A DNA stretch of 64,000 nucleotides, from the NCBI RefSeq assembly GCF_053078305.1, contig NZ_CP166879.1; one strand, 5' to 3'. This document shows, one piece after another, positions 11,627 to 29,688 of the stretch. The notes beneath the pieces were generated by a model. That model had not been told where the DNA came from and ran no database searches. It saw only the letters and a program-made list of their open reading frames with translations. The position numbers were made by a program, and so were the translations under genes. Position 1 is the stretch's first letter. Each line of letters starts with the position of its first letter.

Positions 11627-12214
11627 CGTGAGCCCTTTTTTTTGAACTATTATTAAAAAATGATGTCACTGCGAGATAAATATTCATCTAATCAATGTGA
11701 TTATTTCAAGATGTAAGTTTTAGTTTCTCATTTAATTTGTGAGGTAGATCTCTATTTTTATCTGAGCTTTTTCTATCGAAACCTATTTATGGCTCTTATT
11801 TGAACAAAAATAAACCTATTAGCTAATTTATATTAATGGCTGTTATTTATGGAGGTTCTATAATTCGGCGGTTTAATTTAAATCAACTAAAAATAACGCC
11901 GGAAATTATTTATTGGATATTTGTTGAGGTTTTCTTATGTATTTGTGGTGGTGTTTTGAACACTCGGTAGCATTCTCATAAATATCATTCAGTGGTTTAC
12001 GTACGTAAAAAATTGGTTATGCTGTTAAGAGTGGTTACTTCGTCACACAGCTTAAACCCGCCGTCGAGCTGGTTTTTCCATTTTTTGAGTCTCGATATTA
12101 GCTGATAACTCAATACCTGAGTTATTCACTGACTCCGAGTCTGTTACGTTTCTGCTTTTTTGCGATACGTTGTATTCCCTCAATTTACACCCGCTTTGTC
12201 TGCGAGGTGGGGTT

Positions 12215-12430
12215 ATGAAATCCATGGATAAGTTAACAACGGGTGTCGCCTATGGCACCTCAGCAGGTAGTGCCGGTTACTGGTTTTTACAGCTGCTCGA
12301 TAAAGTCACGCCCTCACAGTGGGCAGCAATAGGTGTGCTGGGTAGCTTGGTATTTGGCCTGCTGACGTACCTGACAAACCTTTATTTCAAGATTAAAGAA
12401 GATAAGCGCAAGGCTGCGAGAGGTGAATAA
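12215..12430 (+). CDS. S: Class II holin/pinholin (S21-type) with dual-start motif
   Basis: [29 protein letters not shown]... matches phage-21 S as recalled; Met-Lys-Ser-Met dual start. Confidence 0.8.
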
Positions 12431-12927
12431 TGCCTCCATCATTACGAAAAGCCGTTGCTGCTGCTATTGGTGGCGGAGCAATTGCTATAGCATCAGTGTT
12501 AATCACTGGCCCAAGTGGTAACGATGGTCTGGAAGGTGTCAGCTACATACCATACAAAGATATTGTTGGTGTATGGACTGTATGTCACGGGCATACAGGA
12601 AAAGACATCATGCTCGGTAAAACGTATACCAAAGCAGAATGCAAAGCACTCTTGAATAAAGACCTTGCCACTGTCGCCAGACAAATTAACCCGTACATCG
12701 AAGTCGATATACCGGAAACAACGCGCGGCGCTCTTTACTCATTCGTTTACAACGTGGGTGCTGGCAATTTCAGAACATCGACGCTTCTTCGCAAAATAAA
12801 CCAGGGCGATATCAAAGGCGCATGTGATCAGCTACGTCGCTGGACATATGCTGGCGGTAAGCAATGGAAAGGTCTCATGACTCGTCGTGAGATTGAGCGT
12901 GAAATCTGTTTGTGGGGTCAGCAATGA
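12430..12927 (+). CDS. R: SAR endolysin (signal-anchor-release lysozyme, R21-type)
   Basis: Hydrophobic N-terminal SAR domain ([20 protein letters not shown]) followed by a lysozyme-like domain. Confidence 0.85.
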
Positions 12928-13385
12928 ACAGAGTAACCGCGATTATCTCCGCTCTGGTTATCTGCATCATCGTCTGCCTGTCATGGGCTGTTAATCATTA
13001 CCGTGATAACGCCATTACCTACAAAGCCCAGCGCGACAAAAATGCCAAAGAACTGAAGCTGGCGAACGCGGCAATTACTGACATGCAGATGCGTCAGCGT
13101 GATGTTGCTGCGCTCGATGCAAAATACACGAAGGAGTTAGCTGATGCGAAAGCTGAAAATGATGCTCTGCGTGATGATGTTGCCGCTGGTCGTCGTCGGT
13201 TGCACATCAAAGCAGTCTGTCAGTCAGTGCGTGAAGCCACCACCGCCTCCGGCGTGGATAATGCAGCCTCCCCCCGACTGGCAGACACCGCTGAACGGGA
13301 TTATTTCACCCTCAGAGAGAGGCTGATCACTATGCAAAAACAACTGGAAGGAACCCAGACGTATATTAATGAGCAGTGCAGATAG
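12924..13385 (+). CDS. Rz: Spanin inner-membrane subunit Rz
   Basis: [39 protein letters not shown]... matches lambda Rz as recalled. Confidence 0.85.
13144..13326 (+). CDS. Rz1: Spanin outer-membrane lipoprotein Rz1, embedded in Rz in the +1 frame
   Basis: [24 protein letters not shown]...PPPPPAW... with lipobox and proline-rich stretch; matches lambda Rz1 as recalled. Confidence 0.8.
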
Positions 13386-13416
13386 AGCTGCCCATATCGA
13401 TGGGCAACTCATGCAA

Positions 13417-13701
13417 TTATTGTGAGCAATACACACGCGCTTCCAGCGGAGTATAAATGCCTAAAGTAATAAAACCGAGCAATCCATTTACGAATGTTTG
13501 CTGGGTTTCTGTTTTAACAACATTTTCTGCACCACCACAAATTTTTGCTGCATCGACAGTTTTCTTCTGCCCAATTCCCGAAACGAAGAAATGATGGGTG
13601 ATGGTTTCCTTTGGTGTTACTGCTGTAGGTTTGTTTCCAACAGTAAACGTCTGTTGAGCACATCCTGTAATAAGCATTGCCAGAGCGGCAGAAAACAACA
13701 T
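13417..13701 (-). CDS. bor: Bor lipoprotein (serum-resistance-associated)
   Basis: Lipobox LITGC and ...ETITHHFFVSGIGQKKTVDAAKICGGAENVVKTETQQTF... match lambda Bor as recalled; the lambda N-terminal MKK is absent because the A-run is one nt shorter. Confidence 0.85.
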   Translation of the reverse strand: MLFSAALAMLITGCAQQTFTVGNKPTAVTPKETITHHFFVSGIGQKKTVDAAKICGGAENVVKTETQQTFVNGLLGFITLGIYTPLEARVYCSQ

Positions 13702-13876
13702 TTTTTCATCTTATTATCCTGCATTGTTAAAAACGGCAGAATCCTATGTGACAACAATTAAACGATAGTTAAATGGATTGATGAAAATTAAAACTATATA
13801 GGTGGATGCTCAGCCTATTGGAGGAGGGGGGGCACTCAGAATCCTGTGGAATGAAATAAACCGCTCTATCTGTCCA

Positions 13877-14101
13877 TTACCCTTTTAGCTGCGCTGTATC
13901 GTCGCCGTATTCCCGCATTAACCATGACCGTAGCCCGACGGGGAATTCCTTCTGCGTGAGTGTGCGGGAATAATCAAAAACGATGCACACCGGGTTTTTA
14001 CCGCGTTTATGGTTCGCGGGGGTGTCCCTCATGCTCGCCAGTCCTGTGCGGGGGTGGAAGAAACAGGACGTGTATTCAGGTCTGTGTGACTGTGGTCGCA
14101 A
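13877..14101 (-). CDS. Hypothetical protein between bor and cos
   Basis: 74-aa ORF; positional analogue of lambda/DLP12 ORFs downstream of bor; no motif recognised. Confidence 0.3.
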   Translation of the reverse strand: MRPQSHRPEYTSCFFHPRTGLASMRDTPANHKRGKNPVCIVFDYSRTLTQKEFPVGLRSWLMREYGDDTAQLKG

Positions 14102-14149
14102 GACTTTTGTCGTTCAGCTATTAAATCCCATTACGAAGTAGACCAGAAC

Positions 14150-14375
14150 GGCCAACGGGTCCTTTCCGGCGATCCGACAGGTTACGGGGCGGCGACCTCG
14201 CGGGTTTTCGCTATTTATGAAAATTTTCCGGTTTAAGGCGTTTCCGTTCTTCTTCGTCGTAACTTAATGTTTTTATTTAAAATACCCCCTGAAAAGAAAG
14301 GAAACGACAGGTGCTGAAAGCGAGCTTTTTGGCCTCTGTCGTTTCCTTTCTCTGTTTTTGTCCGTGGAATGAACA
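14150..14375 (+). promoter_or_regulatory. Helper prophage cos site (cosQ-cosN-cosB); cosN cohesive-end sequence GGGCGGCGACCT at 14187-14198
   Basis: gttacggggcggcgacctcgcgggttttcgctatttatgaaaattttccgg matches the lambda cos region as recalled and sits directly upstream of Nu1. Confidence 0.85.
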
Positions 14376-14895
14376 ATGGAAGTCAACAAAAAGCAGCTGG
14401 CTGACATTTTCGGTGCGAGTATCCGTACCATTCAGAACTGGCAGGAACAGGGAATGCCCGTTCTGCGAGGCGGTGGCAAGGGTAATGAGGTGCTTTATGA
14501 CTCTGCTGCCGTTATAAAATGGTATGCCGAAAGGGATGCTGAAATTGAGAACGAAAAGCTGCGCCGGGAGGTTGAAGAACTGCGGCAGGCCAGCGAGGCA
14601 GATCTCCAGCCAGGGACTATTGAGTACGAACGCCATCGACTTACGCGTGCGCAGGCCGACGCACAGGAACTGAAGAATGCCAGAGACTCCGCTGAAGTGG
14701 TGGAAACCGCATTCTGTACTTTCGTGCTGTCGCGGATCGCAGGTGAAATTGCCAGTATTCTCGACGGGATCCCCCTGTCGGTGCAGCGGCGTTTTCCGGA
14801 ACTGGAAAACCGACATGTTGATTTCCTGAAACGGGATATCATCAAAGCCATGAACAAAGCAGCCGCGCTGGATGAACTGATACCGGGGTTGCTGA

Positions 14896-14921
<26 letters not shown>
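14376..14921 (+). CDS. Nu1: Terminase small subunit Nu1
   Basis: 181-aa protein near-identical to lambda Nu1 as recalled (MEVNKKQLADIFGASIRTIQNWQEQGMPVLRGGGKGNEVLYDSAAV...). Confidence 0.95.
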
Positions 14922-17850
<2,929 letters not shown>

Positions 17851-17977
17851 TTATGTCTATCATCTCCCCGTAGTTGTCCGCATCGTTCGCCAACTCCACT
17901 GAAACCCTTGCTGCGGCTGGAATGTCGTTTTCCATACTTTTGATGACCGTTCATCACACTTCCAGGTTTTCGCGGTT

Positions 17978-18031
17978 TTGTGTATTGCAATGTGTATTGC
18001 AAATTGGCGATCGGGATGGGTGTGTATTGCA
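17978..18031. repeat. Three copies of TGTGTATTGCAA upstream of the island integrase (attL-proximal, putative integrase binding sites)
   Basis: Copies at 17978-17989, 17990-18001 and 18020-18031; the same motif occurs in tandem at 29588-29610 near the other island end. Confidence 0.7.
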
Positions 18032-18050
18032 AATCTCTTGAGGGCTGTTA

Positions 18051-19292
18051 ATGGCTATTGAAAACAAACTCAGTGACAAACTGTTAAAGAGTCTTGTCGG
18101 AAAACGGCAGGACAAACAAAAAACAATAGCGGATGGGCGCGGGTTGTCTGTGCGTGTAAGCATGGTTGGGGGGATCAGCTTTGTTTTTTACTATCGTCTT
18201 GGTGGCAGGGAATCCCCTCCGGTATGGCTTACACTTGGGCGCTATCCTGATATGTCTCTTGCAACAGCCAGGCGCATGCGTGATCAGTGCCGTGAGTGGC
18301 TGGCTGAAAATCTGGACCCCCGCAGGCAAATAAAACTTGCCGCCGAAAAAACCATGCAACCAGTGACCGTAAGGGATGCGCTGTTTTACTGGTACGACAA
18401 TCACGCCACAACAGCCAGAAAAGAGCATGAATATTTAATAAAACGATTTGAAAAGCATATCTTCCCCTATATCGGTGATATGGCTATAGAACAGTGCAAA
18501 TTACACACATGGCTTGCCGTCTTTGACAGGATCAAAAAAAATGCGCCTGTTATGTCTGGTGCAATTTTTCTTGATATCAAACAGGCGTTGCGTTTTTGTC
18601 GCGTCAGGCAATACATCGCGTGCGATCCCTTTGGCGATATTAACGTAAGTTATGTCGGGCGCTCATCCGGTATAAGGGATCGCGTTCTTAATATCAATGA
18701 AACAGCGGATGTATGGTCTTATGCTTACGGTAATAATTTGCTGACACTGTCATCAATACATAACAGAAGAATAATGGTTATCTGCCTGGTGTTTGGTTGC
18801 CGTCAGCAGGAGGCGAGGTTATCCACATGGGACGAATGGGATTTAAAAAACTGGGTATGGACAGTCCCAAAAGAGCACAGCAAAAACAAGGAGGCCATAG
18901 TAAGGCCTGTTCCTGACGGCATAAAACAATGGCTCGTTAATCTTTACGCAGAAACAAAAAATCGCGGTTATGTTGTCGGTTGTGCTTTGCAAAGGGCGAC
19001 AATAACAGGGGCTGCAAACAGAATATGCAGGCGTCTTGGTCATGATATTAATGGCTTGTGGTGCATACATGATTTCAGGCGCACATTTTCCACTGCGCTT
19101 AATGATATGGGGGCGGATCCTTATATTGTCGAACTTCTTTTAGGTCATAAAGTGAAAGGGGTTGCCGGTGTTTACAATAAAAGCAGGCATATAAAGAAAA
19201 AACTTGAGGTGCTTAATATGTGGGTTAATTACCTTAATACGATAGCAGGATTTAACAACAACGTTATCGAGCTTAATAAAGAGGTGGTGTGA
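18051..19292 (+). CDS. int: Tyrosine integrase (P4-type, N-terminal arm-binding DUF4102-like domain)
   Basis: 413-aa ORF; N-terminal region resembles P4-family integrases; C-terminal catalytic motifs HDFRRTF, LLGH and VYNKS (Tyr). Confidence 0.9.
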   Translation: MAIENKLSDKLLKSLVGKRQDKQKTIADGRGLSVRVSMVGGISFVFYYRLGGRESPPVWLTLGRYPDMSLATARRMRDQCREWLAENLDPRRQIKLAAEKTMQPVTVRDALFYWYDNHATTARKEHEYLIKRFEKHIFPYIGDMAIEQCKLHTWLAVFDRIKKNAPVMSGAIFLDIKQALRFCRVRQYIACDPFGDINVSYVGRSSGIRDRVLNINETADVWSYAYGNNLLTLSSIHNRRIMVICLVFGCRQQEARLSTWDEWDLKNWVWTVPKEHSKNKEAIVRPVPDGIKQWLVNLYAETKNRGYVVGCALQRATITGAANRICRRLGHDINGLWCIHDFRRTFSTALNDMGADPYIVELLLGHKVKGVAGVYNKSRHIKKKLEVLNMWVNYLNTIAGFNNNVIELNKEVV

Positions 19293-19293
19293 T

Positions 19294-19551
19294 ATGGCAA
19301 TTTATTCTCTTGTTGATGAAAACGATTTGCGCACAATGAAGGACATTGATCGGTTCATTCGTGAAAAAGAGTGCATAGCACTTACCACGCTGGCAAACTC
19401 AACACGCTGGAAAATGGAGCAGGCAGGTAAATTCCCGCGACGTATCAAGATCGGTGAACGTGCGGCAGGGTATCGACTTTCAGAGGTTCAGGCATGGATC
19501 CGTGGTGAGTGGCATCCTGGATGGAAACCTGGAAAAACAAAACAGCAATAA
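19294..19551 (+). CDS. alpA: AlpA-family excisionase/transcriptional regulator
   Basis: 85-aa HTH protein (ALTTLANSTRWKMEQAGKFPRRIKIGERAAGYRLSEVQAWI) immediately downstream of int. Confidence 0.7.
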   Translation: MAIYSLVDENDLRTMKDIDRFIREKECIALTTLANSTRWKMEQAGKFPRRIKIGERAAGYRLSEVQAWIRGEWHPGWKPGKTKQQ

Positions 19552-19605
19552 CCAGTAAATAACGCCCCTCATCAAGAGGGGTTTTTGTCTATAGGGTAAA
19601 ACGCG

Positions 19606-20184
19606 ATGAATAAAAATATTGCCGTGACGGGCAAGGGGTACGCTCGTCCAGTGAAAAAATTCTGTGATATTCGTGATCTTGTCGTTCTGCGCTTTGATGG
19701 TGTGAGCGTTCGCGTGGTGTATGTGAACGGCGATCCGTGGTTTGTTGCCGTTGACGTGTGCGCTGCGCTGGAAATTGTTGATCACAAGGTTGCGTTACGC
19801 CGTCTCGATGATGATGAAAAGGGGGAGTGTTTAATACCCACCCCAGGTGGAAATCAAACAATGCGAACGGTATGCGAGTCAGGGTTCTACAAACTAATCG
19901 CCAGAAGTCGGAAAGCTGTTACTCCTGGCACGTTCGCCCGTCGTTTCAGTAACTGGGTATTCAGAAATGTGATACCAGGTATCAGAAAAACGGGGGCTTA
20001 TGGTATCCCGTGGGGGGCATTACAGGATTTTTCCCGCCGTAAAGAGCAATATCAAATAAGTGCCAGCGAGAAGGGGAGGGAGCTACAGGCATGTAAGCGC
20101 AAAAAACGTGAACTGGAGGAAGAAGAAAAAAGGCTGATACGTGAATATCAGCCTGAGTTTTACTTTGGTGAGCGTATTCAGTAA
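19606..20184 (+). CDS. Bro-N domain protein (prophage antirepressor-like)
   Basis: N-terminal Bro-N-like region (VRVVYVNGDPWFVAVDVCAALEI...FYKLIARSRKA) with a charged coiled C-terminus. Confidence 0.6.
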   Translation: MNKNIAVTGKGYARPVKKFCDIRDLVVLRFDGVSVRVVYVNGDPWFVAVDVCAALEIVDHKVALRRLDDDEKGECLIPTPGGNQTMRTVCESGFYKLIARSRKAVTPGTFARRFSNWVFRNVIPGIRKTGAYGIPWGALQDFSRRKEQYQISASEKGRELQACKRKKRELEEEEKRLIREYQPEFYFGERIQ

Positions 20185-20521
20185 CCACACGCGGTGCTGA
20201 TTATACGGTACATCGTGTTAACCGAGAAGCTACCCACCAGCAAGGCAAAATCTTCTGCTAAAAAATGACATATGGCCAGTCGTCCGGAAAGCATGAAATT
20301 TTACAAAAATGGAAAATGAAGATTTTTATTGTGCTGGTGGGTAAAAACAAAAAGCGCCCCGTTGCCGGAGCGCCCTTGTGAACAATTAACCTGCTGCGAA
20401 AAAATTGGATCAGTGCAGGGAAATTATATCAACTGTGTGAAGAAGCGCCACAATTGCCAGTTTAGCTTTGCGGCGAACGCGTCAATAAAGAATATTCTTT
20501 CTTTAAATTCTGTTTGTGTAT

Positions 20522-20551
20522 TTTTTCGTAGTTTTTCGTAGTTTTTCGTAA
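20522..20551. repeat. Tandem decamer repeat (TTTTTCGTAG)x3 in island intergenic region
   Basis: ttttttcgtagtttttcgtagtttttcgtaagg; a related palindromic motif cgaaattttcgtag occurs at 29194-29207. Confidence 0.8.
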
Positions 20552-20647
20552 GGAGAAAGAGCGGCGCGTATGCACCGCTAAGGAGTTTATTTTCATGACT
20601 TATGCAGCTTTCAATCTTAGCACCGCCGTAGCTGGTGGACAAGGCTA

Positions 20648-20875
20648 TCAGCCAGGCGGTCGGTTTTTAGTGGCTTTTAACCGCCGTGGGTATTTCTCGA
20701 CAAAATCTTCAAGGGCAAATTTTTCTGGTGGCACTAAGCGCGGCGCTGGTGGTGGTATTTTTGTTCTGGTTAGTTCTTCCTCAAGTCTGGCGCAGGCTTC
20801 TAACTGCCTTTGCCGGATGATTTCATCATCTTGCGTTTGCGTGTCTTGTATTGGTGATAGTGTGTTGTTGGTCAT
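20648..20875 (-). CDS. Hypothetical protein (island, leftward operon)
   Basis: 75-aa acidic ORF downstream of the RHH gene on the minus strand; weak RBS. Confidence 0.35.
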   Translation of the reverse strand: MTNNTLSPIQDTQTQDDEIIRQRQLEACARLEEELTRTKIPPPAPRLVPPEKFALEDFVEKYPRRLKATKNRPPG

Positions 20876-20932
20876 GATACTGCCCTGTAAAGCAATGCGC
20901 CGGAGTACCTCACGCCACGGCGCTGATAGTGA

Positions 20933-21238
20933 TTATTCTGATTCTTGGGTCTTGCGACGCTGGAGTTCTTCGCGTGCAACGGTGACAAGTTGCCCGATTT
21001 CTTCCGCTGCTTTGATGCCGATTTGTTCGACCTTAGCCAGAGCATCCAGTGAAGACACAAGGGGATTTTCTCCGCTGCCTTCTGCCTGGCGGCGGGCGAT
21101 TTCACCGCGCATGGCGGTTACTATGAATCCGGCGTTGCTTTCACCGTCCAGTTTTACGGATTCCATGCCTTCAATAACATCATGCGGGATCCGAGCTGTC
21201 AGTGATTGTGATTTTGCGTTTTTTGAACCTGTAGCCAT
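20933..21238 (-). CDS. Ribbon-helix-helix (CopG/Arc-like) putative regulator, divergent from the island rightward operon
   Basis: SLTARIPHDVIEGMESV resembles an RHH beta-strand plus helix; ATG 21238 with RBS gaggat preferred over the TTG at 21253. Confidence 0.45.
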   Translation of the reverse strand: MATGSKNAKSQSLTARIPHDVIEGMESVKLDGESNAGFIVTAMRGEIARRQAEGSGENPLVSSLDALAKVEQIGIKAAEEIGQLVTVAREELQRRKTQESE

Positions 21239-21797
21239 CTGTAATCCTCTCAATGAAAGTGTAAGACAATATACACATAAAAAGTCTTACATAAAAGCAT
21301 TGACATGTAAGCCACCTATAAATAAAGTTACTTACACCTTGTTAATGCAAGGTGCAGAAACGACGAAACCCGGCAGTGCGCTAACACTAACCGGGCTTCT
21401 AACCACCAACGATAGAAAGCGTATCGAGGTAGCTATGAGAAATCATACCACACACCCGCAAGGGCGGGACTCGCACAACCTGAATAAATACATCTGGCGT
21501 TTTCTGGCCCGAAAAAACCAGTTGATCGCCAGTGTCGAAAATAGCTATGATTCCCGCGCACCTCATAAAACGGGTGCCGGGATTGGCGTCCTGGGCAAAA
21601 CTGAAGCGCATAACACGCGCCCCGCGTGTTTTTTTGTGCCGCATAGTCACACCTTATCAATGGTGGGCTGTACGGGGGCGGAGCAATCCGCGCCGGTTTC
21701 TTCAGTGTCCGGTTACGCCAACCCTGTACAGTCCGCCACCAGCGAAATTGGCGTTTCCGGTGGCGGTTATCTTAACCACACTGAGGAGGCTGCCAAC

Positions 21798-21989
21798 ATG
21801 GCTACTATCCCTACCCTTGTACATTCTCAAACCGCCTTTCTCTGGCGCTTTATCATCTTTGGCGCGTCAGACCATCAAATCATCCACGTCACCGCCTGGA
21901 CGGAACGCGAAGCGCGTAGCCGTTGCCCGTCCGGTTGTGTTGCTGTATTCGCCGCCCGTATTCGTCAGGAGGTGTGCCATGTGCAATAA
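21798..21989 (+). CDS. Icd-like small protein (host cell-division inhibitor family, tentative)
   Basis: 63-aa ORF with strong RBS gaggagg; MATIPTLVHSQTAFLWRFIIFGASDHQIIHV... recalled as resembling Icd-like proteins of P4-type islands; it is the only plausible part of ORF 20595-21989. Confidence 0.4.
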   Translation: MATIPTLVHSQTAFLWRFIIFGASDHQIIHVTAWTEREARSRCPSGCVAVFAARIRQEVCHVQ

Positions 21990-22431
21990 AACCACACCGG
22001 ACGCAGCCGCCGCGCTCACTACACTGATGCACGCGCTGATTGATATTTCTGTTATTGCTGACAGGGCGCATAAGCACGCCACCAGTGAAACAGAATATGC
22101 CGGGGCTTTCGTTCCTCATTCGCTGGCGGTTATGCAACTTAGTGCTGATATGGCGCTGAATGAGGCCAAAGCTATCCTGATTTCTGATTGTGAAAATGGG
22201 GGGGGGGTTATGCGTGATGATCGTTTTAATGCCCTGAAACAGGAGTTTGATGGTGCGCCTGATGATGCAGGTGATGCGCTTTCGTCAATATCCGAACTGA
22301 TAAGAGTGGCCTTTTTCTTACTTGGCACGAAAGAATATAAATCAACTGGAATAGACGTACTGAATATTACTGCTGATTATGCGGAATATATGGCAGAAGT
22401 GGATTTAAGAAAGATAACGGACAGGGGGTAA
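21979..22431 (+). CDS. Hypothetical protein (island early operon)
   Basis: RBS aggagg before ATG 21979; the upstream part of ORF 21532-22431 is rejected as a spurious extension. Confidence 0.5.
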   Translation: MCNKTTPDAAAALTTLMHALIDISVIADRAHKHATSETEYAGAFVPHSLAVMQLSADMALNEAKAILISDCENGGGVMRDDRFNALKQEFDGAPDDAGDALSSISELIRVAFFLLGTKEYKSTGIDVLNITADYAEYMAEVDLRKITDRG

Positions 22432-22432
22432 T

Positions 22433-22666
22433 ATGCGTGATATTTACCACGAAACAATAGACCGCGCATTTAGTGCCCTTGCTTACGCTGAAGGTATGTA
22501 CGAAATATTGCAAATGTGTCTGGAAACATTTGGCGATAATGAGCGTGATGTAAAGAAGGCGCGGATTATTAAATCACTGATAACTCTCCTTGAACCTGTA
22601 ATAACAGAGTTGCAGGAAATAGACTTATTGCACGACAGATATAACGAACAGCACACCGGAGAATAA
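22433..22666 (+). CDS. Hypothetical protein
   Basis: 77-aa ORF tightly packed after the preceding gene (start 2 nt after its stop). Confidence 0.45.
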   Translation: MRDIYHETIDRAFSALAYAEGMYEILQMCLETFGDNERDVKKARIIKSLITLLEPVITELQEIDLLHDRYNEQHTGE

Positions 22667-22671
22667 AAATA

Positions 22672-22971
22672 ATGAAACTTAAATATCCTGGCTTAACTGC
22701 CAGTGGCAACACTCACCCTAAATTTACGCGCGGTGATATTTACCGCGACCAGTACGGCGGCACGGTAATGATTAAGGGCGTGGCGGGACGGTGCGTAACT
22801 TACCGCCGTGAAGGCTACGAATATGATTGCGTGATGCCTGTTTATCAGTTCCGGCGTGATTTTTCTCTGGTACAGACCGCGCCGCATAACGTGCCCACCA
22901 GCAACGCCAGGGCACGGGCAAACATCCAGAAGCTGAAAACCATGATTAACGGATTCAGGGGTAAAAAATGA
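22672..22971 (+). CDS. Hypothetical protein
   Basis: 99-aa ORF; 3' end overlaps the rep start by 4 nt. Confidence 0.45.
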   Translation: MKLKYPGLTASGNTHPKFTRGDIYRDQYGGTVMIKGVAGRCVTYRREGYEYDCVMPVYQFRRDFSLVQTAPHNVPTSNARARANIQKLKTMINGFRGKK

Positions 22972-24377
22972 AACTGGCACCGAACGTAAAACGATTACCG
23001 AAAGATAAATACACCGAAGCGGTTATTTTTGCGGGTATTGATGCTCACTCATTCGCAGAGCATTACATCATTGCACAGGCCAAAAAAGCAGGCGATCCAG
23101 TCCCTCCCGTTTATCTGGGGCGTTATCAGTTAAGCGAACTGGATAACCTCCAGATTGTTGATGATGGGCGATACAGGGCGACGGTGATACGCGCCGGAAA
23201 TATTGAAGAGCCGCAGCTGTTAACCATCGCCACGAAACTGGCGAGCGCCGGAGTCCAGGAGGCGCGGCTACTTTCTGAAAATTTCGAATTGCTGGAGGAA
23301 TGGAGCGACCAGCTTCCACGGCTTAGGGAGGCATGGGAACGCGGGGAAAGCCTGGTCATGAAAAAAATTCCCCAGCGAAAAACCACGCTACCGATGAGCG
23401 TTGGATCTACCGGATACGACACACAGCTTGATTACGTGGTAAAGGGGATTATTCCGGCATCGTCGCTTTGCAGCATATACGGGGCGAGCGGTTCCTATAA
23501 ATCATTCCTTGCCGGATCGTGGGCGTGTCACGTTTCCACGGGCCGCCAGTGGGGAGGCCGCAGGGTGGCGCATGGCGCTGTTCTCTATGTGGTTGGTGAA
23601 GGCGGTATCGGCGTTCCGCGTCGTGTAAAAGCCTGGGAGGTTGTGCACGGTGAGCAGGTGAAAAATCTGTATCTGGTAAACCGTCCCATCTTTCCGGCTG
23701 TCCCGCTTGATGTTGATGAACTGGTTATTGCTGCCAGTCAGGTGGAGAGGGAAACGGGTAAACCTGTTCGCATGATTATTCTGGACACGCTGGCGCGTTG
23801 CTTTGGCGGCAATGATGAAAATGACTCCCGCGACATGGGGGCATTTATCCGTGGTTGTGACGAGCTTAAACGGCGCACAGGGGCTACGGTGCTGGTGGTT
23901 CACCATTCCGGCAAGGATGAAACAAAGGGGGCGCGTGGTTCCAGTGCATTTCGTGCATCACTGGACGCTGAATACCGGATACGCAGGGAGGACGCAGGAA
24001 GCGAAGCGCTGGTTATCTCATGCACCAAAATGAAGGACGCGGAGGAACTCAAAGAGGCTGCCTATGATTTGCGGGTGGTGGAGCTTTTTACCGACGCTGA
24101 CGGGGAGTTAATTACGTCGCTGGTGGTGGTGGATAAGCCGCGCCCTCCCGTTGAACTGGAGCGCATCGAGGAGGCAGGCAACAAGACGGAAAACCATACC
24201 GCGCTATGGGGGTGCATCCGTTCACGCACACAGAACGGCGACAAGTGCACGATCCCGCTGTTACGTGACGATATGAAAAAGCTGGGGTATGACACAAAAC
24301 ACCTTAAACGATGGTTAGCCAAACTGGAAAAAGACGACGTGATCTACATTGACGGTGATGATGTAGGACCACTGTAA
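22968..24377 (+). CDS. rep: Replication initiator/helicase (RepA-like AAA_25 RecA-fold ATPase with N-terminal primase-C-like region)
   Basis: Walker A-like SIYGASGSYKSFLA, Walker B-like RMIILDTLAR, and TVLVVHHSGKD; followed directly by an iteron array. Confidence 0.75.
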   Translation: MKLAPNVKRLPKDKYTEAVIFAGIDAHSFAEHYIIAQAKKAGDPVPPVYLGRYQLSELDNLQIVDDGRYRATVIRAGNIEEPQLLTIATKLASAGVQEARLLSENFELLEEWSDQLPRLREAWERGESLVMKKIPQRKTTLPMSVGSTGYDTQLDYVVKGIIPASSLCSIYGASGSYKSFLAGSWACHVSTGRQWGGRRVAHGAVLYVVGEGGIGVPRRVKAWEVVHGEQVKNLYLVNRPIFPAVPLDVDELVIAASQVERETGKPVRMIILDTLARCFGGNDENDSRDMGAFIRGCDELKRRTGATVLVVHHSGKDETKGARGSSAFRASLDAEYRIRREDAGSEALVISCTKMKDAEELKEAAYDLRVVELFTDADGELITSLVVVDKPRPPVELERIEEAGNKTENHTALWGCIRSRTQNGDKCTIPLLRDDMKKLGYDTKHLKRWLAKLEKDDVIYIDGDDVGPL

Positions 24378-24582
24378 AAAGTGGGCATTAAAAGTGGGAA
24401 AGGTGGGCGATTTAACGTAATTTTAACAAAATCACCCACTTTCCCACGTGTATATATCCCAAAAAGTGGGCACTAAAAAAATACCTATGAAACAAGATGA
24501 TATAAATCCCAAACTTCCCACGTTGGACGAAGTGGGAAAACGTAAAAAGTGGGCGAAAAAAGTGGGTAGAGGTGGGCAAATG
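24375..24582. repeat. Island origin of replication: iteron array with GTGGG core (AAAGTGGGCA/AAGTGGGAAA, direct and inverted copies)
   Basis: About 8 direct and 3 inverted copies of (A)AGTGGG(C/A) within ~200 bp immediately 3' of rep. Confidence 0.7.
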
Positions 24583-24831
24583 ACTCAAAAACACAGAGAC
24601 AGAACAGAGCCAAAATATAAAGCGTTAGACATGACAGAGCACGCTTTAAAGGTGGCAATCAGGGTAATAGACCGCCACACGCGGGAAGGATACGCGAAGG
24701 AACATCCCGACCTGATAAGCGCATTCATGACCACAGCGGCGGCAAACTTTGCCACGCTGACAGAACGGGAGATAGCCGAAGCGGAACAGGTAACAACCAT
24801 CAACGTTAAAACCGGAGAGGTGGAATCATGA
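24580..24831 (+). CDS. Hypothetical protein
   Basis: In-frame ATG just after the iteron array; the upstream part of ORF 24448-24831 overlaps the iterons and is unlikely to be coding. Confidence 0.4.
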   Translation: MTQKHRDRTEPKYKALDMTEHALKVAIRVIDRHTREGYAKEHPDLISAFMTTAAANFATLTEREIAEAEQVTTINVKTGEVES

Positions 24832-25238
24832 CAGCACAGATAGCCGCTTACGGGCGGCTGGTGGACGACCCGCAGGTAAAACAAACCAGCAAGGGCACAC
24901 CGATGACGCTGGCGCGTATGGCGGTATCTCTGCCATGCAGCCAGGCACAGGACGGGCAGGCTACGTTATGGCTATCAGTGATGGCATTTGGTAAGCAGGC
25001 CGACTTCCTGGCTAAACATCAAAAAGGCGATGTTGCCAGCGTATCCGGCACGATGCAGGTAAGCCAGTGGACCAGACAGAACGGGGAAACGCGGCAGGGT
25101 TATCAGGTTATTGCAGACAGTGTAATCAGTGCCCGTGCTGCCCGTCCTGGCGGGAGCAGACGTACAACCACAGGCACACAGGGTAATCAGCCACCAGCGG
25201 GAGGCGATGACCCTTACGGTGACGGTATTCCGTTCTGA
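24828..25238 (+). CDS. ssb: Single-stranded DNA-binding protein (SSB-like)
   Basis: OB-fold signature (LWLSVMAFGKQADFL...KGDVASVSGTM) and acidic C-terminal tail DDPYGDGIPF. Confidence 0.7.
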   Translation: MTAQIAAYGRLVDDPQVKQTSKGTPMTLARMAVSLPCSQAQDGQATLWLSVMAFGKQADFLAKHQKGDVASVSGTMQVSQWTRQNGETRQGYQVIADSVISARAARPGGSRRTTTGTQGNQPPAGGDDPYGDGIPF

Positions 25239-25248
25239 GGGGGTGACG

Positions 25249-25521
25249 ATGGTACATGACCGCATAGCGGAGGAACTCGAGGCAAAAGGCTTTTACCGGA
25301 GGGCGGCGGCGCGATGGGGTGAAGTTATGCAGCTGGTGGAGACAGACAAGGAACGGCATCAGGTTACGATGCGACGGCTGGAATGTTCCAGGAAGGCACA
25401 GAGGCCACCGGAGCCGCCGGATAACTTCGGAGACCTGAAAAAAGCAGTAGATCGCACTTATGCCGAAATGGGTATGGATGGTGTAAGCGATGAAATATGG
25501 CGTAATTACCCAGACAGCTAA
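25249..25521 (+). CDS. PerC-family transcriptional activator-like protein
   Basis: AEELEAKGFYRRAAARWGEVMQLVETDKERHQV resembles the PerC/Pch signature; RBS gagggg; real start internal to ORF 25129-25521. Confidence 0.5.
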   Translation: MVHDRIAEELEAKGFYRRAAARWGEVMQLVETDKERHQVTMRRLECSRKAQRPPEPPDNFGDLKKAVDRTYAEMGMDGVSDEIWRNYPDS

Positions 25522-25527
25522 TCAACA

Positions 25528-25549
25528 GCCGGAGAAATCCGGCTTTTTT
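25528..25549 (+). terminator. Intrinsic terminator (GCCGGAGAAATCCGGC + T6)
   Basis: Perfect hairpin plus T-run directly after the PerC-like gene; the identical hairpin recurs at 27802-27824. Confidence 0.7.
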
Positions 25550-25561
25550 GTACCCAAAAAA

Positions 25562-25598
25562 AGCCCGATAAGTACAGGAGGCATCTTATCGGGCTTTT
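25562..25598 (+). terminator. Second tandem intrinsic terminator
   Basis: agcccgataag...cttatcgggct hairpin followed by tttt. Confidence 0.55.
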
Positions 25599-25676
25599 GC
25601 ATATGAGGTTTTTTTGGTGCACTGACACACATGATCGGGGTAATCATTTCATAATTTGCAACACAACTCAACATCA

Positions 25677-25737
25677 TTGCACAAAATGCAATCCTGATTA
25701 TAATCAGAGCTGGATGAACATCCAGTTCTGATTTTTT
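25677..25737 (+). promoter_or_regulatory. Sigma70-like promoter followed by a hairpin and U-run, upstream of the island capsid/packaging operon
   Basis: TTGCAC (25677-25682), 16-nt spacer, TATAAT (25699-25704); hairpin ctggatg-aa-catccag (25710-25725) then ttctgatttttt. Confidence 0.5.
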
Positions 25738-25760
25738 AAGTCAAAGAGGAATTTCTTACT

Positions 25761-25967
25761 ATGGCTGAAGAGAAAAAAGGCGGTGTTTCGGTGTACATAA
25801 GCCCCGAAATCGTGGAGGTGCTCAAGCAGCGCCACAAAAAAAACTATGAGGCTGGCGTAGCGGCTGGACTGGATCCGCTGATGACGCCGGAGCCGTCGAT
25901 AGGTTCACTTGTGCGCTCTTATTTACTTGCGGCGCTTGGGATGCATAAAAATTATGGTGGTGAATAA
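25761..25967 (+). CDS. Hypothetical small protein (first gene of island morphogenetic operon)
   Basis: 68-aa ORF with RBS agagga; stop overlaps the capsid gene start. Confidence 0.4.
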   Translation: MAEEKKGGVSVYISPEIVEVLKQRHKKNYEAGVAAGLDPLMTPEPSIGSLVRSYLLAALGMHKNYGGE

Positions 25968-27022
25968 TGACAGTAAAAGCAATGGCACTTACAACTAACC
26001 AGCTTTTCGCGTACCTGAATCGCGGGGATATTGCAGAATTTAAATTCAGTCCGCTGTTTACCACGCTGTTTTTCCCGAACGTGGCGACCTTCAACACCCA
26101 GAACATCATGCTGGACACCCTGGACATTGAAGAGGTTACGATGTCAGCGTTCTGTTCGCCTATGGTGGGTAGTCAGGTCCAGCGCGATAAAGGGTACGAA
26201 ACCAGCACGATTAAACCAGGCTACATGAAACCCAAACACGAAATCGATCCAACAAAAACCATCATGCGCATGGCTGGAGAAGATCCGGCACAGCTTAACG
26301 ACCCTACCTACCGCCGTATGCGCCTGATTACTGGCAACATGCGCCGCCAGATAAACGCCATTAAAGCGCGCGTGGAATGGCTGGCGGTGAATGCGATAAC
26401 GACCGGAAAAAACATCATTGAGGGCGAAGGCATAGAACGCTATGAAATCGACTGGAAAATACCGGAAAACTGCATCATAGAGCAGGCCAAGGGTAAAAAA
26501 TGGTCCGAGCATGATAAAGATATTTACGATCCAATCTATGACATCGAACTATACGCAGATCAGGCAGGTTGCCCCGCCAACGTCATGATTATGGGCGCTG
26601 AGGTATGGCGCACGTTACGCAGCTTTAAAAAATTCCGCGAACTGTACGATCTTTCCCGTGGTTCAGAATCCGCCGCAGAACTGGCCTGTAAAAACCTGGG
26701 TGAAGTAGTGAGCTTTAAAGGCTATCTGGGCGATATTGCCCTTATCGTCTATTCCGGCAAATACACTGACAGCGACGGTACCGAAAAATATTTCCTTGAG
26801 CCTGATTTGCTGGTCCTGGGTAACACCAACAATAAAGGGCTGGTGGCCTATGGTGCGATTATGGATCAGGAAGCGGTAAGAACGGGCGCAACGCAAAACA
26901 TGTTCTACCCGAAAAACTGGATTGAAGACGGCGATCCGGCGATTGAGTACGTTCAGACGCACAGCGCACCGCAGCCGGTACCGGCAGATATTCGCAAATT
27001 TGTTACCGTCAAAATTGCTTAA
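25967..27022 (+). CDS. Major capsid protein homologue (diverged lambda gpE-like, HK97 fold)
   Basis: Collinear with the helper E at 32160-33185: FKFSPLFTTLFF / FKFDPLFLRLFF, KPGYMKPKHEIDP / TPGYVKPKHEVNP, DPTYRRMRLITGNMRRQINAI / DPAYRRRRIIMQNMRDEELAI. Confidence 0.8.
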   Translation: MTVKAMALTTNQLFAYLNRGDIAEFKFSPLFTTLFFPNVATFNTQNIMLDTLDIEEVTMSAFCSPMVGSQVQRDKGYETSTIKPGYMKPKHEIDPTKTIMRMAGEDPAQLNDPTYRRMRLITGNMRRQINAIKARVEWLAVNAITTGKNIIEGEGIERYEIDWKIPENCIIEQAKGKKWSEHDKDIYDPIYDIELYADQAGCPANVMIMGAEVWRTLRSFKKFRELYDLSRGSESAAELACKNLGEVVSFKGYLGDIALIVYSGKYTDSDGTEKYFLEPDLLVLGNTNNKGLVAYGAIMDQEAVRTGATQNMFYPKNWIEDGDPAIEYVQTHSAPQPVPADIRKFVTVKIA

Positions 27023-27033
27023 CGGGGGATTCT

Positions 27034-27369
27034 ATGGACACTCCATACATTGAGTTATTTGCAGGCAGTCAGCAGGTATCCACGACGCTGGTACATTTTG
27101 CCGCTGATGCTGGCGTTATTCAGGAATTTACCCCGCTGATGCTGGCGGACAATGGCGAGTTTAAGCCGTGGGATGGTCAGGAATCTGGCAAGGCTGTTTA
27201 TCTGACCTCGTACCCCGTGGACACGTCAAAGCAGAAATCAGCACAGTGTTACAAGACGGGGATATTTAATATCGCCGCCGTAAACTGGCCTGAGAGCGCC
27301 GACACTGACGCGAAAAAATGCGCCGCCTTTGCGGGTTCTGGCGTATCCGTTCAGCCGCTGGCGCGATAA
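27034..27369 (+). CDS. Head decoration protein homologue (diverged lambda gpD-like)
   Basis: 111 aa; TPLMLADNGEFKPWDG...AAFAGSGVSV parallels the helper D (31766-32104) [17 protein letters not shown]...[11 protein letters not shown]. Confidence 0.7.
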   Translation: MDTPYIELFAGSQQVSTTLVHFAADAGVIQEFTPLMLADNGEFKPWDGQESGKAVYLTSYPVDTSKQKSAQCYKTGIFNIAAVNWPESADTDAKKCAAFAGSGVSVQPLAR

Positions 27370-27381
27370 GCAGGGGAAACG

Positions 27382-27795
27382 ATGGCAACGAATGAAAGCA
27401 TCATGGCGCTACCGCTGGCGAGTAAATTTAAAGCAGAAGCGCGGGCAATGGCTGACAGAGGTTTATCAACCTACGAGGCCGTATATCAACTCAACAAACT
27501 GGAAGAGCAGGACAAGCCGCGCGCTGATGCGATTATGGCGCTTCATGAACATAACGACTATCAGCCGCTGTTACGTGCAATGGCAAACGTGCCATGTATT
27601 AGCGTCGATAATGCTCGTGAAATCCTGAACATGACCATAGAGCAGGAGCGCCCAAAGGTTGCGCCGGAGCTTACCGCAGCCTTTGAAAACTTTATGGACA
27701 TGCACAGCCCGAAAGCCGTATCACCCGGCATGGCATACGACGGCAGAAACCAGGGCGATGAAGGCGACGTCGATCGCATACTGAAAACCATCTGA
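27382..27795 (+). CDS. Hypothetical protein (island morphogenetic operon)
   Basis: 137-aa ORF followed by a strong terminator; no family recognised. Confidence 0.45.
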   Translation: MATNESIMALPLASKFKAEARAMADRGLSTYEAVYQLNKLEEQDKPRADAIMALHEHNDYQPLLRAMANVPCISVDNAREILNMTIEQERPKVAPELTAAFENFMDMHSPKAVSPGMAYDGRNQGDEGDVDRILKTI

Positions 27796-27801
27796 CATAA
27801 G

Positions 27802-27824
27802 GCCGGAGAAATCCGGCTTTTTTT
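27802..27824 (+). terminator. Intrinsic terminator (GCCGGAGAAATCCGGC + T7)
   Basis: Same hairpin as at 25528; ends the capsid operon just before the island cos. Confidence 0.7.
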
Positions 27825-27825
27825 A

Positions 27826-27895
27826 CGGGTCCTTTCCGGCATATGGACCCGTTACGGGGCGGCGACCTCGCGGTTTTTCGCTATTTATGAGCTTT
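27826..27895 (+). promoter_or_regulatory. Island cos site: cosN identical to the helper (GGGCGGCGACCT at 27857-27868), with a distinct downstream cosB-like region
   Basis: gggtcctttccggc...gttacggggcggcgacctcgcggtttttcgctatttatga aligns with the helper cos at 14155-14222, then diverges before terS. Confidence 0.7.
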
Positions 27896-28001
27896 TTTCG
27901 GGTGCTGGTGGTGGTTTTGTTTTTCGCTCTATCTCTATGAATAAAAAGGGAAAGATAAAACCAATACACCAACCTGAAACATTACTTAAGTGGGGATATT
28001 G

Positions 28002-28544
28002 ATGAAATCGCACCTGATGAACAAAAAAAACATGGCGCAAAGCTGCCGTGTAAGTGCGACAGCGTTCGACAAGTGGGGAGTGACTCCCGTTGAACGTAAA
28101 GGACGCGAGGCTTTTTACGATGTTGCCAGCGTGATAGACAATCGGGTAAGCAATGCAATTAACCAGGTTACAAACGACAAAGGCGAGATTGATGATGATG
28201 AACTCTTACGAGTCAGGATCAGATTACTGACCGCCCAGGCTGAGGCGCAGGAACTTAAAAACGAGCGCGATCGCGGTGACGTAATTGATACTGAGTTTTG
28301 CCTGTACGCGCTTTCAAAGCTGGCGAGTCAGATTTCTTCAATCATGGACAGTTTGCCGCTTACCATGCAAAGGCGCTTCCCGCAGATTACTCCCGCTATG
28401 CTGGATGGGCTTAAAAGGGAAGTGGTTAAAGCCTGTAATGCCAGTGCCACAGTTGCCGACAACCTCCCGAAGATACTGGCTGATTACCTGATGGAAACTA
28501 CCGGAGACGTACCGGAGAAGTTGCTACAGAAGAAAGGCGAGTAA
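28002..28544 (+). CDS. Terminase small subunit homologue (Nu1-like, divergent N-terminal DNA-binding region)
   Basis: C-terminal two-thirds collinear with Nu1 (LTAQAEAQELKNERDRGDVIDTEFCLYALSKLASQISSIMDSLPLTMQRRFPQI vs LTRAQADAQELKNARDSAEVVETAFCTFVLSRIAGEIASILDGIPLSVQRRFPEL); N-terminal ~50 aa diverged. Start 28002 chosen by RBS. Confidence 0.75.
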   Translation: MKSHLMNKKNMAQSCRVSATAFDKWGVTPVERKGREAFYDVASVIDNRVSNAINQVTNDKGEIDDDELLRVRIRLLTAQAEAQELKNERDRGDVIDTEFCLYALSKLASQISSIMDSLPLTMQRRFPQITPAMLDGLKREVVKACNASATVADNLPKILADYLMETTGDVPEKLLQKKGE

Positions 28545-28689
28545 CAGACGCGCAATTATTGAACAAAAGTAAGGCCCGACATGAAATCACCCAAAAATGC
28601 CTTTTTCATGCGTTTGTATGTCTGACCTTTTACGGTTTCGATATTATAAAAAACAAATAGTTACGCTCGAGAGGTACCGACACGCATTT

Positions 28690-28775
28690 TTCAGGAAAAT
28701 TTTCATAAACAGATAAAAACCGCGAGGTCGCCGCCCCGTAACGGGCCATAATTCCAGGAAGGACCCGACGACACC
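28690..28775 (-). promoter_or_regulatory. Second cos-like site in inverted orientation (cosN at 28725-28736, minus strand), helper-like flank
   Basis: Minus-strand read gttacggggcggcgacctcgcggtttttatctgtttatgaaaattttcc shares ttatgaaaattttcc with the helper cosB side; no terminase gene lies downstream in this orientation. Confidence 0.6.
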
Positions 28776-28800
28776 AGGCTATCAGAACGATGAGGGCACA

Positions 28801-29082
28801 ATGACAGAAGCCGAACTACTGGGATTAATCCGCTACGTTACCGGAATCAGCCAGCAGCATGACGAACAGGCCACGCAGCCGGACAGCGTGACCGCTGAAA
28901 ATTATGCGCGTGTTGTTGCTGAGGTGATGCGCCGTGATGGTATCCAGCTTAATGATGCAGATATGCGCGACATACGGATCCGCGTTCTTGAAATGCTGGC
29001 CTACCGTCGCCGCGTGCAGACGTACAGGGAAAAAGCAAAAATAACGTACCAGTGGAAGAAGCCGGAGCGATTACGGCGGTAA
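28801..29082 (+). CDS. Hypothetical protein
   Basis: 93-aa ORF near the right island end; no family recognised. Confidence 0.4.
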   Translation: MTEAELLGLIRYVTGISQQHDEQATQPDSVTAENYARVVAEVMRRDGIQLNDADMRDIRIRVLEMLAYRRRVQTYREKAKITYQWKKPERLRR

Positions 29083-29477
29083 CTTGCTGATATTCCCGAT
29101 AACGCAAAATTGCGCTCTGTCCTAACCCGTTGATATTTTCGGGAACAGCCAACGGCTGAGGCCGGAACAACGATTATCTTTCAGATAGTCAGAGCTACGA
29201 AATTTTCGTAGTTTAATTACTCGCCAGTTTATCGTTAACTCGTTGATATTTTCGGTAACCTCAATTTGAGGAGATCGGAAACATAACCCTTCACATTCTG
29301 AATGGTTATAATGACCACTCAGACCATCAAGGCAACCATAACGAACATCGTTACGGTTGGAGCTTTTACCCCACTGGGGGGAAGGTGCACATCTGGATCA
29401 TCATTACCGTGATCAAGGGTATGTAAAACCCACCAGCCTGATTAACTGTTAACCGGAAAAAAGCCAGGTAGCCAATC

Positions 29478-29501
29478 TCGATATGGGGATCCCCATATCG
29501 A
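29478..29501. repeat. Perfect 24-bp palindrome TCGATATGGGGATCCCCATATCGA
   Basis: Exact inverted repeat centred on GGATCC within the ~600-bp non-coding right arm of the island. Confidence 0.9.
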
Positions 29502-29587
29502 CATTAACGCCCCCTAGAACTGCGCATATCTGCATATAAAAACATCCACCAGCTTTATGACGGATGCCGCTCATCTGATAAATAATC

Positions 29588-29610
29588 GTGTATTGCAATG
29601 TGTATTGCGA
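29588..29610. repeat. Two tandem copies of (T)GTGTATTGC(A/G)A near the island right end (attR-proximal)
   Basis: gtgtattgcaatgtgtattgcga; same motif as the attL-proximal triplet at 17978-18031. Confidence 0.7.
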
Positions 29611-29688
29611 CTCCTTTAAACGATAGGTTTGAGCATTCGTAATGTACTGTTTTTAAATTTTATTTTTTCCTGTCTTTTCATAAAAGCC

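Follow-up and report, generated by a model that had tools for sequence, protein, structure and literature searches.

A c1499/c1500-type shell cassette with a Nu3-like neighbour in a portal-embedded satellite of Escherichia coli, and its possible accessory role in lambda-type heads

The window analysed here, a stretch of 64,000 nucleotides from contig NZ_CP166879.1 (NCBI RefSeq assembly GCF_053078305.1), contains a lambda-like prophage whose portal gene B is split after codon 276 by a phage-inducible chromosomal island (PICI) of 11,840 bp. Junction sequences and alignment of the flanks place this island at 17851-29690, co-oriented with the interrupted portal gene, and it is referred to below as helper-embedded (an HE-PICI), with the prophage as its helper. 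Coordinates are those of the window unless another record is named, and the genes, RNAs, cosN copies and attP motifs lie on the + strand unless stated otherwise. The late zone of the island carries three consecutive genes, E' (25967-27022), D' (27034-27369) and Nu3' (27382-27795), encoding proteins of 351, 111 and 137 amino acids (aa) that are orthologous to c1499, c1500 and c1501, respectively, of EcCICFT073, the model PICI of E. coli.

The E' protein belongs to the gpE family of major capsid proteins with the HK97 fold. It matches the profile Phage_cap_E (PF03864) with E=2.5e-50 over profile positions 14-328 of 329, as well as phrog_29 ('major head protein') with E=1.4e-107. With respect to solved structures, the lambda gpE chains determined by cryo-electron microscopy (7VI9) match E' residues 20-351 (E=7.7e-82), and PDB entry 3BQW, a 351-aa 'putative capsid protein of prophage', matches over residues 1-351 (E=2.9e-232). 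Judged from this alignment, the protein crystallised for 3BQW appears to have been CFT073 c1499 itself; the structure once served as molecular-replacement model for another HK97-fold capsid protein. D' is similarly assigned to the gpD/SHP family of head-decoration proteins, through the HDPD profile (PF02924, E=1e-17) and phrog_49 (4e-27) and through two solved structures, SHP of phage 21 (1TD0, 6e-13) and lambda gpD (1C5E, 1e-9). The initial annotation had described these two genes as E-like and D-like and had named the HK97 and gpD-like folds as the point on which that description could fail; the structural matches bear it out.

It had also described them as substantially diverged from the helper's own genes and placed in the opposite order, and both statements hold. 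Compared with the helper pair at 31772-33185 (D, 31772-32104; E, 32160-33185), E' shares 42.3% identity with helper E over 343 aa and is collinear with it (residues 9-351 versus 5-341), and D' shares 36.8% identity with helper D over 76 aa. The contrast between the island order E'-D' and the helper order D-E recurs in three further islands and two further helpers. The genes of the cassette have good Shine-Dalgarno sequences and spacers of 11-12 nt, and the E' start overlaps, in a TAATG stop-start, the stop of a preceding gene for a 68-aa protein (25761-25967; phrog_3255), which is 68% identical to the CFT073 gene in the same position. By homology, E' and D' are real capsid-shell and decoration genes of a satellite.

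The initial annotation took the module to hold shell and decoration proteins only, which is not the case, as the island also has a Nu3-like gene, a Nu1-like gene (28002-28544) and two cosN sites. The Nu3-like gene, Nu3', lies directly beside D', and its product shows homology to the scaffold (Nu3) domain that forms the C-terminal part of lambdoid gpC. It matches phrog_1999 (6.7e-62) and the C-terminal end of phrog_53 (1.5e-9), and the C-terminus of the helper gpC/Nu3 in turn matches phrog_1999, the family of Nu3' (5e-25 and 2e-26). The helper gene in question (30449-31762) encodes the gpC protease with the nested Nu3 scaffold and is assigned to Peptidase_S49, phrog_53, phrog_8399 and phrog_8940. 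In BLASTP, Nu3' residues 49-131 align with residues 416-493 of the CFT073 helper gpC (36% identity, E=7e-10); the same comparison with the gpC of the present helper was not significant. An exhaustive search yielded a 195-aa Nu3-type scaffold (P0041; phrog_8399, 1e-34) that links the Nu3' and gpC families. It has three copies of an IMxLxEAxGRE...PGMT...A(K/R)xLL repeat and a FExFMxxHSP tail, both of which are shared with Nu3'. A word-indexed homologue search with the 137-aa protein returned close E. coli relatives only, and the hhalign match of Nu3' to a Nu3-type profile was weak (E=0.0026, probability 11%, from shallow alignments); the homology became clear via the PHROG profiles, the CFT073 helper gpC and the intermediate sequence. 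On this evidence from protein comparison, Nu3' is a Nu3-like scaffold-domain protein. Its orthologue c1501 carries no annotated function in the 2018 supplement (PMC6092414), and the naming of c1501 orthologues by the Prokaryotic Genome Annotation Pipeline (PGAP) is inconsistent.

E' and D' are also distant from known phage proteins. Among the proteins of 50,697 phage records, the best match to E' has 46.5% identity, and D' finds none above 45%. Two PICI lineages of E'/D' are 54-55% identical to each other and 41-45% identical to helper E/D, and the helper E/D proteins are 56-62% identical among themselves; these pairwise identities indicate that E' and D' have diverged in parallel. Pairwise dN/dS lies between 0.07 and 0.11 for E', between 0.03 and 0.15 for D', and between 0.23 and 0.33 for the Nu3-like gene. 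Taken together, the comparisons characterize E'/D' as an old, satellite-specific, co-diverging clade that is, by its substitution pattern, under strong purifying selection. Since the identity to phage records nowhere rises above 47%, recent capture of the pair from a helper was rejected.

In the collection searched, 597 of 5,426 complete E. coli genomes (about 11%) carry the pair in this allelic form, counted where coverage is at least 80%, and among the matches listed it is annotated 'major capsid protein' and 'head decoration protein'. The initial annotation had regarded such a partial module as unusual. This view cannot be maintained, as orthologues of the pair (c1499 and c1500) were already described in 2018, the pair itself is widespread, and a major capsid gene occurs in 21 of 29 reference Gram-negative PICIs, in which it is the commonest late gene (PMC10111431). 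A further HE-PICI in this portal position, with an E'/D' lineage 54-55% identical to the pair in the window, is harbored by E. coli GZEC065 (L003, 20322-23148), which is among the 59 complete genomes with the portal-int junction given below. A D'-like decoration gene (43% identity) was also seen in Escherichia phage vB_EcoM-569R10 and its relatives (H103-H106, records of 19.8-27 kb); these short records may represent satellites, or incomplete genomes, that were deposited as phages.

The left arm of the prophage (1-17849) and the right arm (from 29693) share 96-97% nucleotide identity with Escherichia phages PhiR68_2 and PhiR26_1, and past about 54 kb the window corresponds to the E. coli fadL/fadI/fadJ/intS chromosomal region (97.3% identity). 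The 5' part of helper portal gene B (17021-17850) comprises codons 1-276 and the first two bases of codon 277 and matches Phage_portal_2 (PF05136, E=1.5e-62) over profile positions 2-237 of 354, and the translation of the 3' part (29691-30462) carries on the lambda gpB sequence (...MYAATIESELD...). Joining 17850 to 29691 gives a 533-aa portal reading ...SAIVKAMYAAT..., and in uninterrupted lambdoid phages the ends of the two prophage arms align to adjacent positions of the portal gene. From the joined reading frame, precise excision would restore the 533-aa helper portal. Read-through of the split portal at attL gives ...VKAIYVYHLPVV... followed by a stop. The block of identity between attL and attR (AT-TATG) is short and imperfect (GAAGGCGAT|TTATGTC versus AAAAGCCAT|GTATGCC). 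The same portal-int junction was found in 59 complete E. coli genomes, with 95.7-98.4% nucleotide identity among the matches listed.

Insertions of helper-embedded PICIs have been reported at 14 sites within lambda late genes, with Phage_portal_2:240-243 as one site group, and their attP was described as having two co-oriented copies of a doubled motif, one 81 +/- 2 bp upstream of the centre and the other 132 +/- 2 bp downstream (Tommasini, Mageeney & Williams, 2023; PMC10111431). In the present island, both copies of the doubled motif tgTGTATTGCantgTGTATTGCa are co-oriented and their spacing agrees with these values, with the P' arm copy (17979-18003) starting about 130 bp after the crossover and the P arm copy (29587-29609) ending 81 bp before it. 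These doubled TGTATTGC motifs fall within 17979-18034 and 29587-29612, and a third, single copy lies at 18021-18034. Like the published islands of the B:Phage_portal_2:240-243 group, this one is co-oriented with the late gene and has no replacement sequence in attP; it also shares with the published HE-PICIs the layout of Gram-negative PICIs in four zones (integration, Bro, replication, late), the C4 and isrK RNAs of the Bro zone, and a capsid gene in the late zone. The split between codons 276 and 277 falls at about position 237 of the current Pfam model versus 240-243 for the site group, for which a different version of the profile is the likely reason, and it is not a defining difference. 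The island is therefore of a published type, an HE-PICI within the EcCICFT073-type family of Gram-negative PICIs.

The remaining gene content agrees with this assignment, with int followed by alpA at one end, a RepA-type helicase and a single-strand DNA-binding protein, a size of 11,840 bp, as against about 10-20 kb for PICIs of this type, and no tail or lysis genes. The integration zone encodes a tyrosine integrase (18051-19292) with Arm-DNA-bind_3, Phage_int_M and Phage_integrase domains and an AlpA excisionase/activator (19294-19551; Phage_AlpA, PF05930, E=5e-14), followed by a Bro-N (anti-repressor-like) protein (19606-20184; PF02498, E=5e-16; phrog_2593). The Bro zones of HE-PICIs have been reported to carry C4 and isrK RNAs (PMC10111431), and both are found here at 21558-21743, isrK at 21558-21634 and the C4 antisense RNA at 21656-21743, with Rfam scores of 66 and 77.6 bits that both pass the gathering threshold; they form a P4-CI-like immunity RNA pair. 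A 464-aa open reading frame (ORF) at 20595-21989 was rejected as spurious, given its odd composition, the overlap with opposite-strand ORFs and the fact that it covers the C4/isrK RNAs. One of the opposite-strand ORFs beneath it resembles a YlcI/YnfO-family gene located in the same place in related islands, and DUF4222 is also among the island gene content.

The replication zone includes the RepA-type helicase (22968-24377; AAA_25, E=6.5e-44; phrog_2850), and iterated AAAAAGTGGGC repeats occur at 24374-24566, directly after the helicase gene, which is the reported location of PICI replication origins. A single-strand DNA-binding protein (24828-25238; SSB, PF00436, E=3e-17) and a PerC-family regulator (25249-25521; PF06069, E=3.4e-45) precede the late zone. 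An identical 22-nt hairpin terminator, GCCGGAGAAATCCGGCTTTTTT, stands at 25528-25549 and at 27802-27823 and thus brackets the cassette consisting of the 68-aa gene, E', D' and Nu3'; the islands of CFT073 and RM14516 have the downstream copy only. The paired terminators could represent a module boundary or a requirement for antitermination. Near the right end lies a gene for a conserved late-zone protein of 93 aa (28801-29082; phrog_1561), 82% identical to its CFT073 counterpart. A scan with NCBIfam gave no name for any late-zone protein.

Packaging functions are represented by two exact cosN copies and a small terminase gene. The first cosN copy (GGGCGGCGACCT) lies at 27857-27868 and the second is inverted (28725-28736, - strand), both matching helper cosN exactly; the cosQ-cosN stretch of the island is the same as that of the helper cos site (14187), and the cosB region is different. 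TerS' (28002-28544, with an alternative GTG start at 27990) is a Nu1-like small terminase (PF07471, Phage_Nu1, E=6e-24; phrog_57, 9e-52) and a full-length homologue of helper Nu1, with 36% identity over 179 aa. Its gene is flanked by the two inverted cosN copies and occupies the position of RppA (c1503) in EcCICFT073. BLASTP of TerS' against CFT073 RppA was not significant, and PDB sequence searches with the 93-aa, 184-aa and 137-aa proteins gave no match to RppA, which was therefore rejected as a component of this late zone; because of the missing RppA match, the island is classed as a TerS-type and not an Rpp-type variant. The C-terminal end of TerS' (LPKILADYLMET) resembles that of helper Nu1. 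In lambda, the C-terminal region of Nu1 is the part that binds gpA. Direct recruitment of the helper large terminase (TerL) by TerS' is possible on the basis of the protein sequence.

As the initial annotation had stated, the island lacks portal, protease and large terminase genes. When helper Nu1, A, W, B, C, D, E, FI, FII, Z, U and V were searched against the island by tblastn, matches were obtained only for Nu1, D and E, and no portal, S49 protease or large terminase was seen when the island ORFs examined were scanned with Pfam and PHROG (with Pfam alone for two of them). This sets the island apart from the capsid-forming PICIs (cf-PICIs; EcCIEDL933; Alqurainy et al., bioRxiv 10.1101/2022.09.08.507074), with which it shares a satellite capsid clade apart from phages and PICI-type int, alpA and rep modules. 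The cf-PICIs encode a full set of head and packaging functions of the HK97 type (TerS, TerL, HNH, portal, protease and head-tail connectors) and make their own small capsids, whereas TerL, portal, protease and connectors are absent from the island in the tblastn and profile scans; membership in that group was rejected on this ground. A P4-like satellite was likewise rejected, as no sid, psu, delta or alpha primase families were found in the Pfam and PHROG scans, and the resemblance to P4 is confined to the C4/isrK immunity-RNA pair.

Analogies with the capsid-modifying proteins of other satellites can be drawn gene by gene. Ccm of the Staphylococcus aureus pathogenicity island (SaPI) SaPIbov5 is, as E', a satellite homologue of the helper capsid protein with the HK97 fold, and P4 Psu is a satellite-encoded decoration protein comparable to D'. 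CpmB of SaPI1 is reportedly a small alternative scaffold that shares the C-terminal domain of the helper scaffold, and by mimicking that C-terminus it may be compared with Nu3'. Except for the HK97 fold of Ccm, the three island proteins are unrelated in sequence to Ccm, CpmB and Sid/Psu. Moreover, size-redirecting or stabilising roles have been demonstrated for the latter, whereas E', D' and Nu3' are likened to them from their genes, no phenotype having been found.

The closest known relative is EcCICFT073, the late zone of which has the same genes in the same order, encoding the 68-aa protein, the 351-aa capsid protein, the 111-aa decoration protein, the 137-aa protein, a packaging-specificity protein and the 93-aa protein. 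Amino acid identity is 96.6% for E'/c1499, 97.3% for D'/c1500 and 89.8% for Nu3'/c1501, as compared with the 68% and 82% given above for the 68-aa and 93-aa proteins. Both islands have two inverted cosN sites and a size of about 11-12 kb, EcCICFT073 measuring about 11.4 kb by its annotated flanks. They differ in that the present island has the Nu1-like TerS' and a RepA-type helicase where EcCICFT073 has RppA (c1503) and a primase, in the integrase, AlpA and Bro genes of the left end, and in location, the portal gene of a prophage versus the interval between roxA and phoQ.

Published experiments on EcCICFT073 bear directly on the role of the cassette. The proteins c1499 and c1500 were named putative capsid protein and head decoration protein, respectively, DNA from lambda and EcCICFT073 particles was all phage-sized, and no PICI-monomer band was obtained from induced CFT073 (Fillol-Salom, 2018; PMC6092414). 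Interference with lambda persisted after c1499 or c1500 had been deleted, and transfer was unchanged, at 3.8e3 and 8.7e3 transductants per ml, respectively, versus 8e3 (PMC6092414). Both cos sites of EcCICFT073 are functional, and when its post-ori genes were expressed from pBAD18 one at a time, c1503 (rppA) alone cut lambda plaquing, as shown in work of 2018 and 2019 (PMC6092414; PMC6739421). The authors of the EcCICFT073 work read its packaging as the skipping of successive cos sites, and packaged PICI DNA has since been summarised as phage-length (~45-kbp) concatemers (PMC10111431). Helper-dependent induction, replication and high-frequency transfer have been shown only for EcCICFT073.

The initial annotation had suggested that capsid genes of this kind yield chimeric or resized capsids, had named transfer unaffected by their deletion as an outcome that would count against this, and had offered packaging of multimers as the alternative. 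For EcCICFT073, transfer was indeed unaffected, and the phage-sized DNA together with the unchanged transfer favours multimers. The length stated there for four copies, about 47.4 kb, also agrees with the observed unit (4 x 11,840 = 47,360 bp); four copies of EcCICFT073 amount to about 45 kb. There is, however, a complication. The tetA-marked EcCICFT073 is c1501::tetA, the c1499 and c1500 deletions were built in that background (PMC6092414), and the 2019 study used the same c1501::tetA marker in addition to c1499::cat (PMC6739421). Transfer of the c1499::cat island, in which c1500 and c1501 are undisturbed, reached as much as 1e6 per ml when phage 80 was the helper. The published null phenotypes are thus confounded, since the islands assayed were already disrupted in c1501 or c1499, and for the same reason chimeric or resized capsids are unsupported rather than excluded. 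In the papers covered by our literature search, neither capsid size nor particle composition nor transfer is reported for an island whose E'-D'-Nu3' cassette is intact, and the search gave no later functional work on c1499 or c1500.

Given the observed identity, fold and gene content of the cassette, the cos sites and the embedding of the island, we infer its expression, assembly and packaged form from the EcCICFT073 data and lambda biology. We consider it somewhat more probable than all else (probability about 0.55) that this is a c1499/c1500-orthologous shell cassette which contributes to lambda-type heads in an accessory role, the island being packaged as tetramers. E' with its HK97 fold, its cognate gpD-type cement D' and Nu3' would be a tightly coupled, late-expressed unit; for the embedded configuration, read-through from the helper late operon has been proposed as the means of expression (PMC10111431). 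The unit would supply satellite shell, cement and scaffold-like subunits to heads that still depend on the helper for portal, gpC protease, TerL (gpA), head-completion proteins and tails. TerS' would recognise the island cos and hand island DNA or concatemers to helper gpA, leading to tetramers of about 47 kb in full-size heads. The cassette would then be accessory, kept by selection and dispensable for transfer in the laboratory. With respect to the earlier suggestion of assembly on helper portal and scaffold, dependence on the helper portal is retained, but the island's own Nu3-like gene had been overlooked.

Several points weigh against this reading. There is no direct evidence that E' or D' is incorporated in particles, and the null phenotypes could mean that the two proteins have no head role at all. 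The published data concern EcCICFT073, which has RppA and not TerS', and the TerS-encoding islands IHE3034 and 18098 were transferred poorly or not at all. Tetramer packaging is deduced from the unit length and the packaging limits of lambda. Finally, the third gene of the cassette in GZEC065 encodes an AlpA-like helix-turn-helix protein in place of the Nu3-like protein.

A stronger version, which we hold to be possible but doubtful, is that an intact E'-D'-Nu3' cassette builds wholly or partly satellite heads, possibly smaller ones, on helper portal, protease and terminase. Such satellite-specific heads would have been missed because the model island was studied only as c1501::tetA or c1499::cat, with the cassette destroyed. 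If true, satellite heads of this kind would stand between those of classical PICIs and cf-PICIs, as an intermediate that is 'shell-forming'.

Slightly less probable, and in our estimation unlikely, is redirection of capsid size, by which E', D' and the Nu3-like scaffold would make small heads of their own or redirect helper gpE, so that one 11.8-kb copy fits and the helper genome is excluded. Satellite capsid homologues act in this manner elsewhere, as with SaPIbov5 Ccm and with PmCI172, which combines small heads and a capsid homologue; the domain that Nu3' shares with the C-terminus of the helper scaffold parallels SaPI CpmB, and the negative data come from c1501::tetA or c1499::cat islands in which the cassette was never intact. 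A lambda-type shell with T=3 would hold about 13.6 kb if capacity scales, simply by volume, with T^1.5, and a copy of 11.84 kb would fill about 87% of it. Nevertheless, the packaged DNA of lambda and EcCICFT073 was all phage-sized, induced CFT073 gave no monomer band, and the c1499::cat island, which still has c1500 and c1501, was transferred by phage 80 at the high level given above. The unit lengths of about 10.6-11.8 kb are near one quarter of a lambda headful, which fits multimer packaging, and E' shows no obvious size-determining change, being of full length and collinear to gpE.

PICIs typically interfere with their helpers, and the cassette might accordingly serve in interference, with E' and D' as poison subunits or as decoys against lambdoid phages or capsid-sensing defences. 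Divergence from the helper proteins (42% and 37% identity) could make mixed assemblies defective, and the genes show strong conservation although no effect on transfer is seen. We regard this explanation as improbable, as lambda was still subject to interference once c1499 or c1500 had been deleted, only c1503 reduced lambda plaquing among the singly expressed post-ori genes, and the parallel divergence of E' and D' together with a cognate scaffold-like gene points to real shell assembly.

Least probable is that E' and D' are backup copies or recently captured helper genes, passive or replacing interrupted ones: although Tommasini et al. propose captured late genes as a possible backup of the interrupted gene and HE-PICIs in gene E carry their own capsid gene (PMC10111431), the gene interrupted here is the portal, for which the island has no copy and on which ground a backup role was rejected, the same cassette occurs in chromosomal PICIs that interrupt no phage gene, recent capture is contradicted by an identity of at most 47% to any phage homologue and by the opposite gene order, and purifying selection speaks against inert cargo.

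Returning to the accessory shell cassette, the genes themselves, their presence in Gram-negative PICIs, the portal-embedded configuration and the apparent c1499 structure are already known from published work. What is added here is the Nu3-like neighbour, the recognition of E'/D' as a selected, satellite-specific clade, and the confounding of the published tests. A capsid-decoration pair that forms a satellite-only clade under strong purifying selection occurs in about 11% of complete E. coli genomes, and the Nu3-like neighbour, together with the fact that earlier assays used disrupted cassettes, makes the role of the cassette directly testable. If the cassette proves functional, the accepted view of the model E. 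coli PICI as riding in full-size capsids made by its helper would have to be revised.

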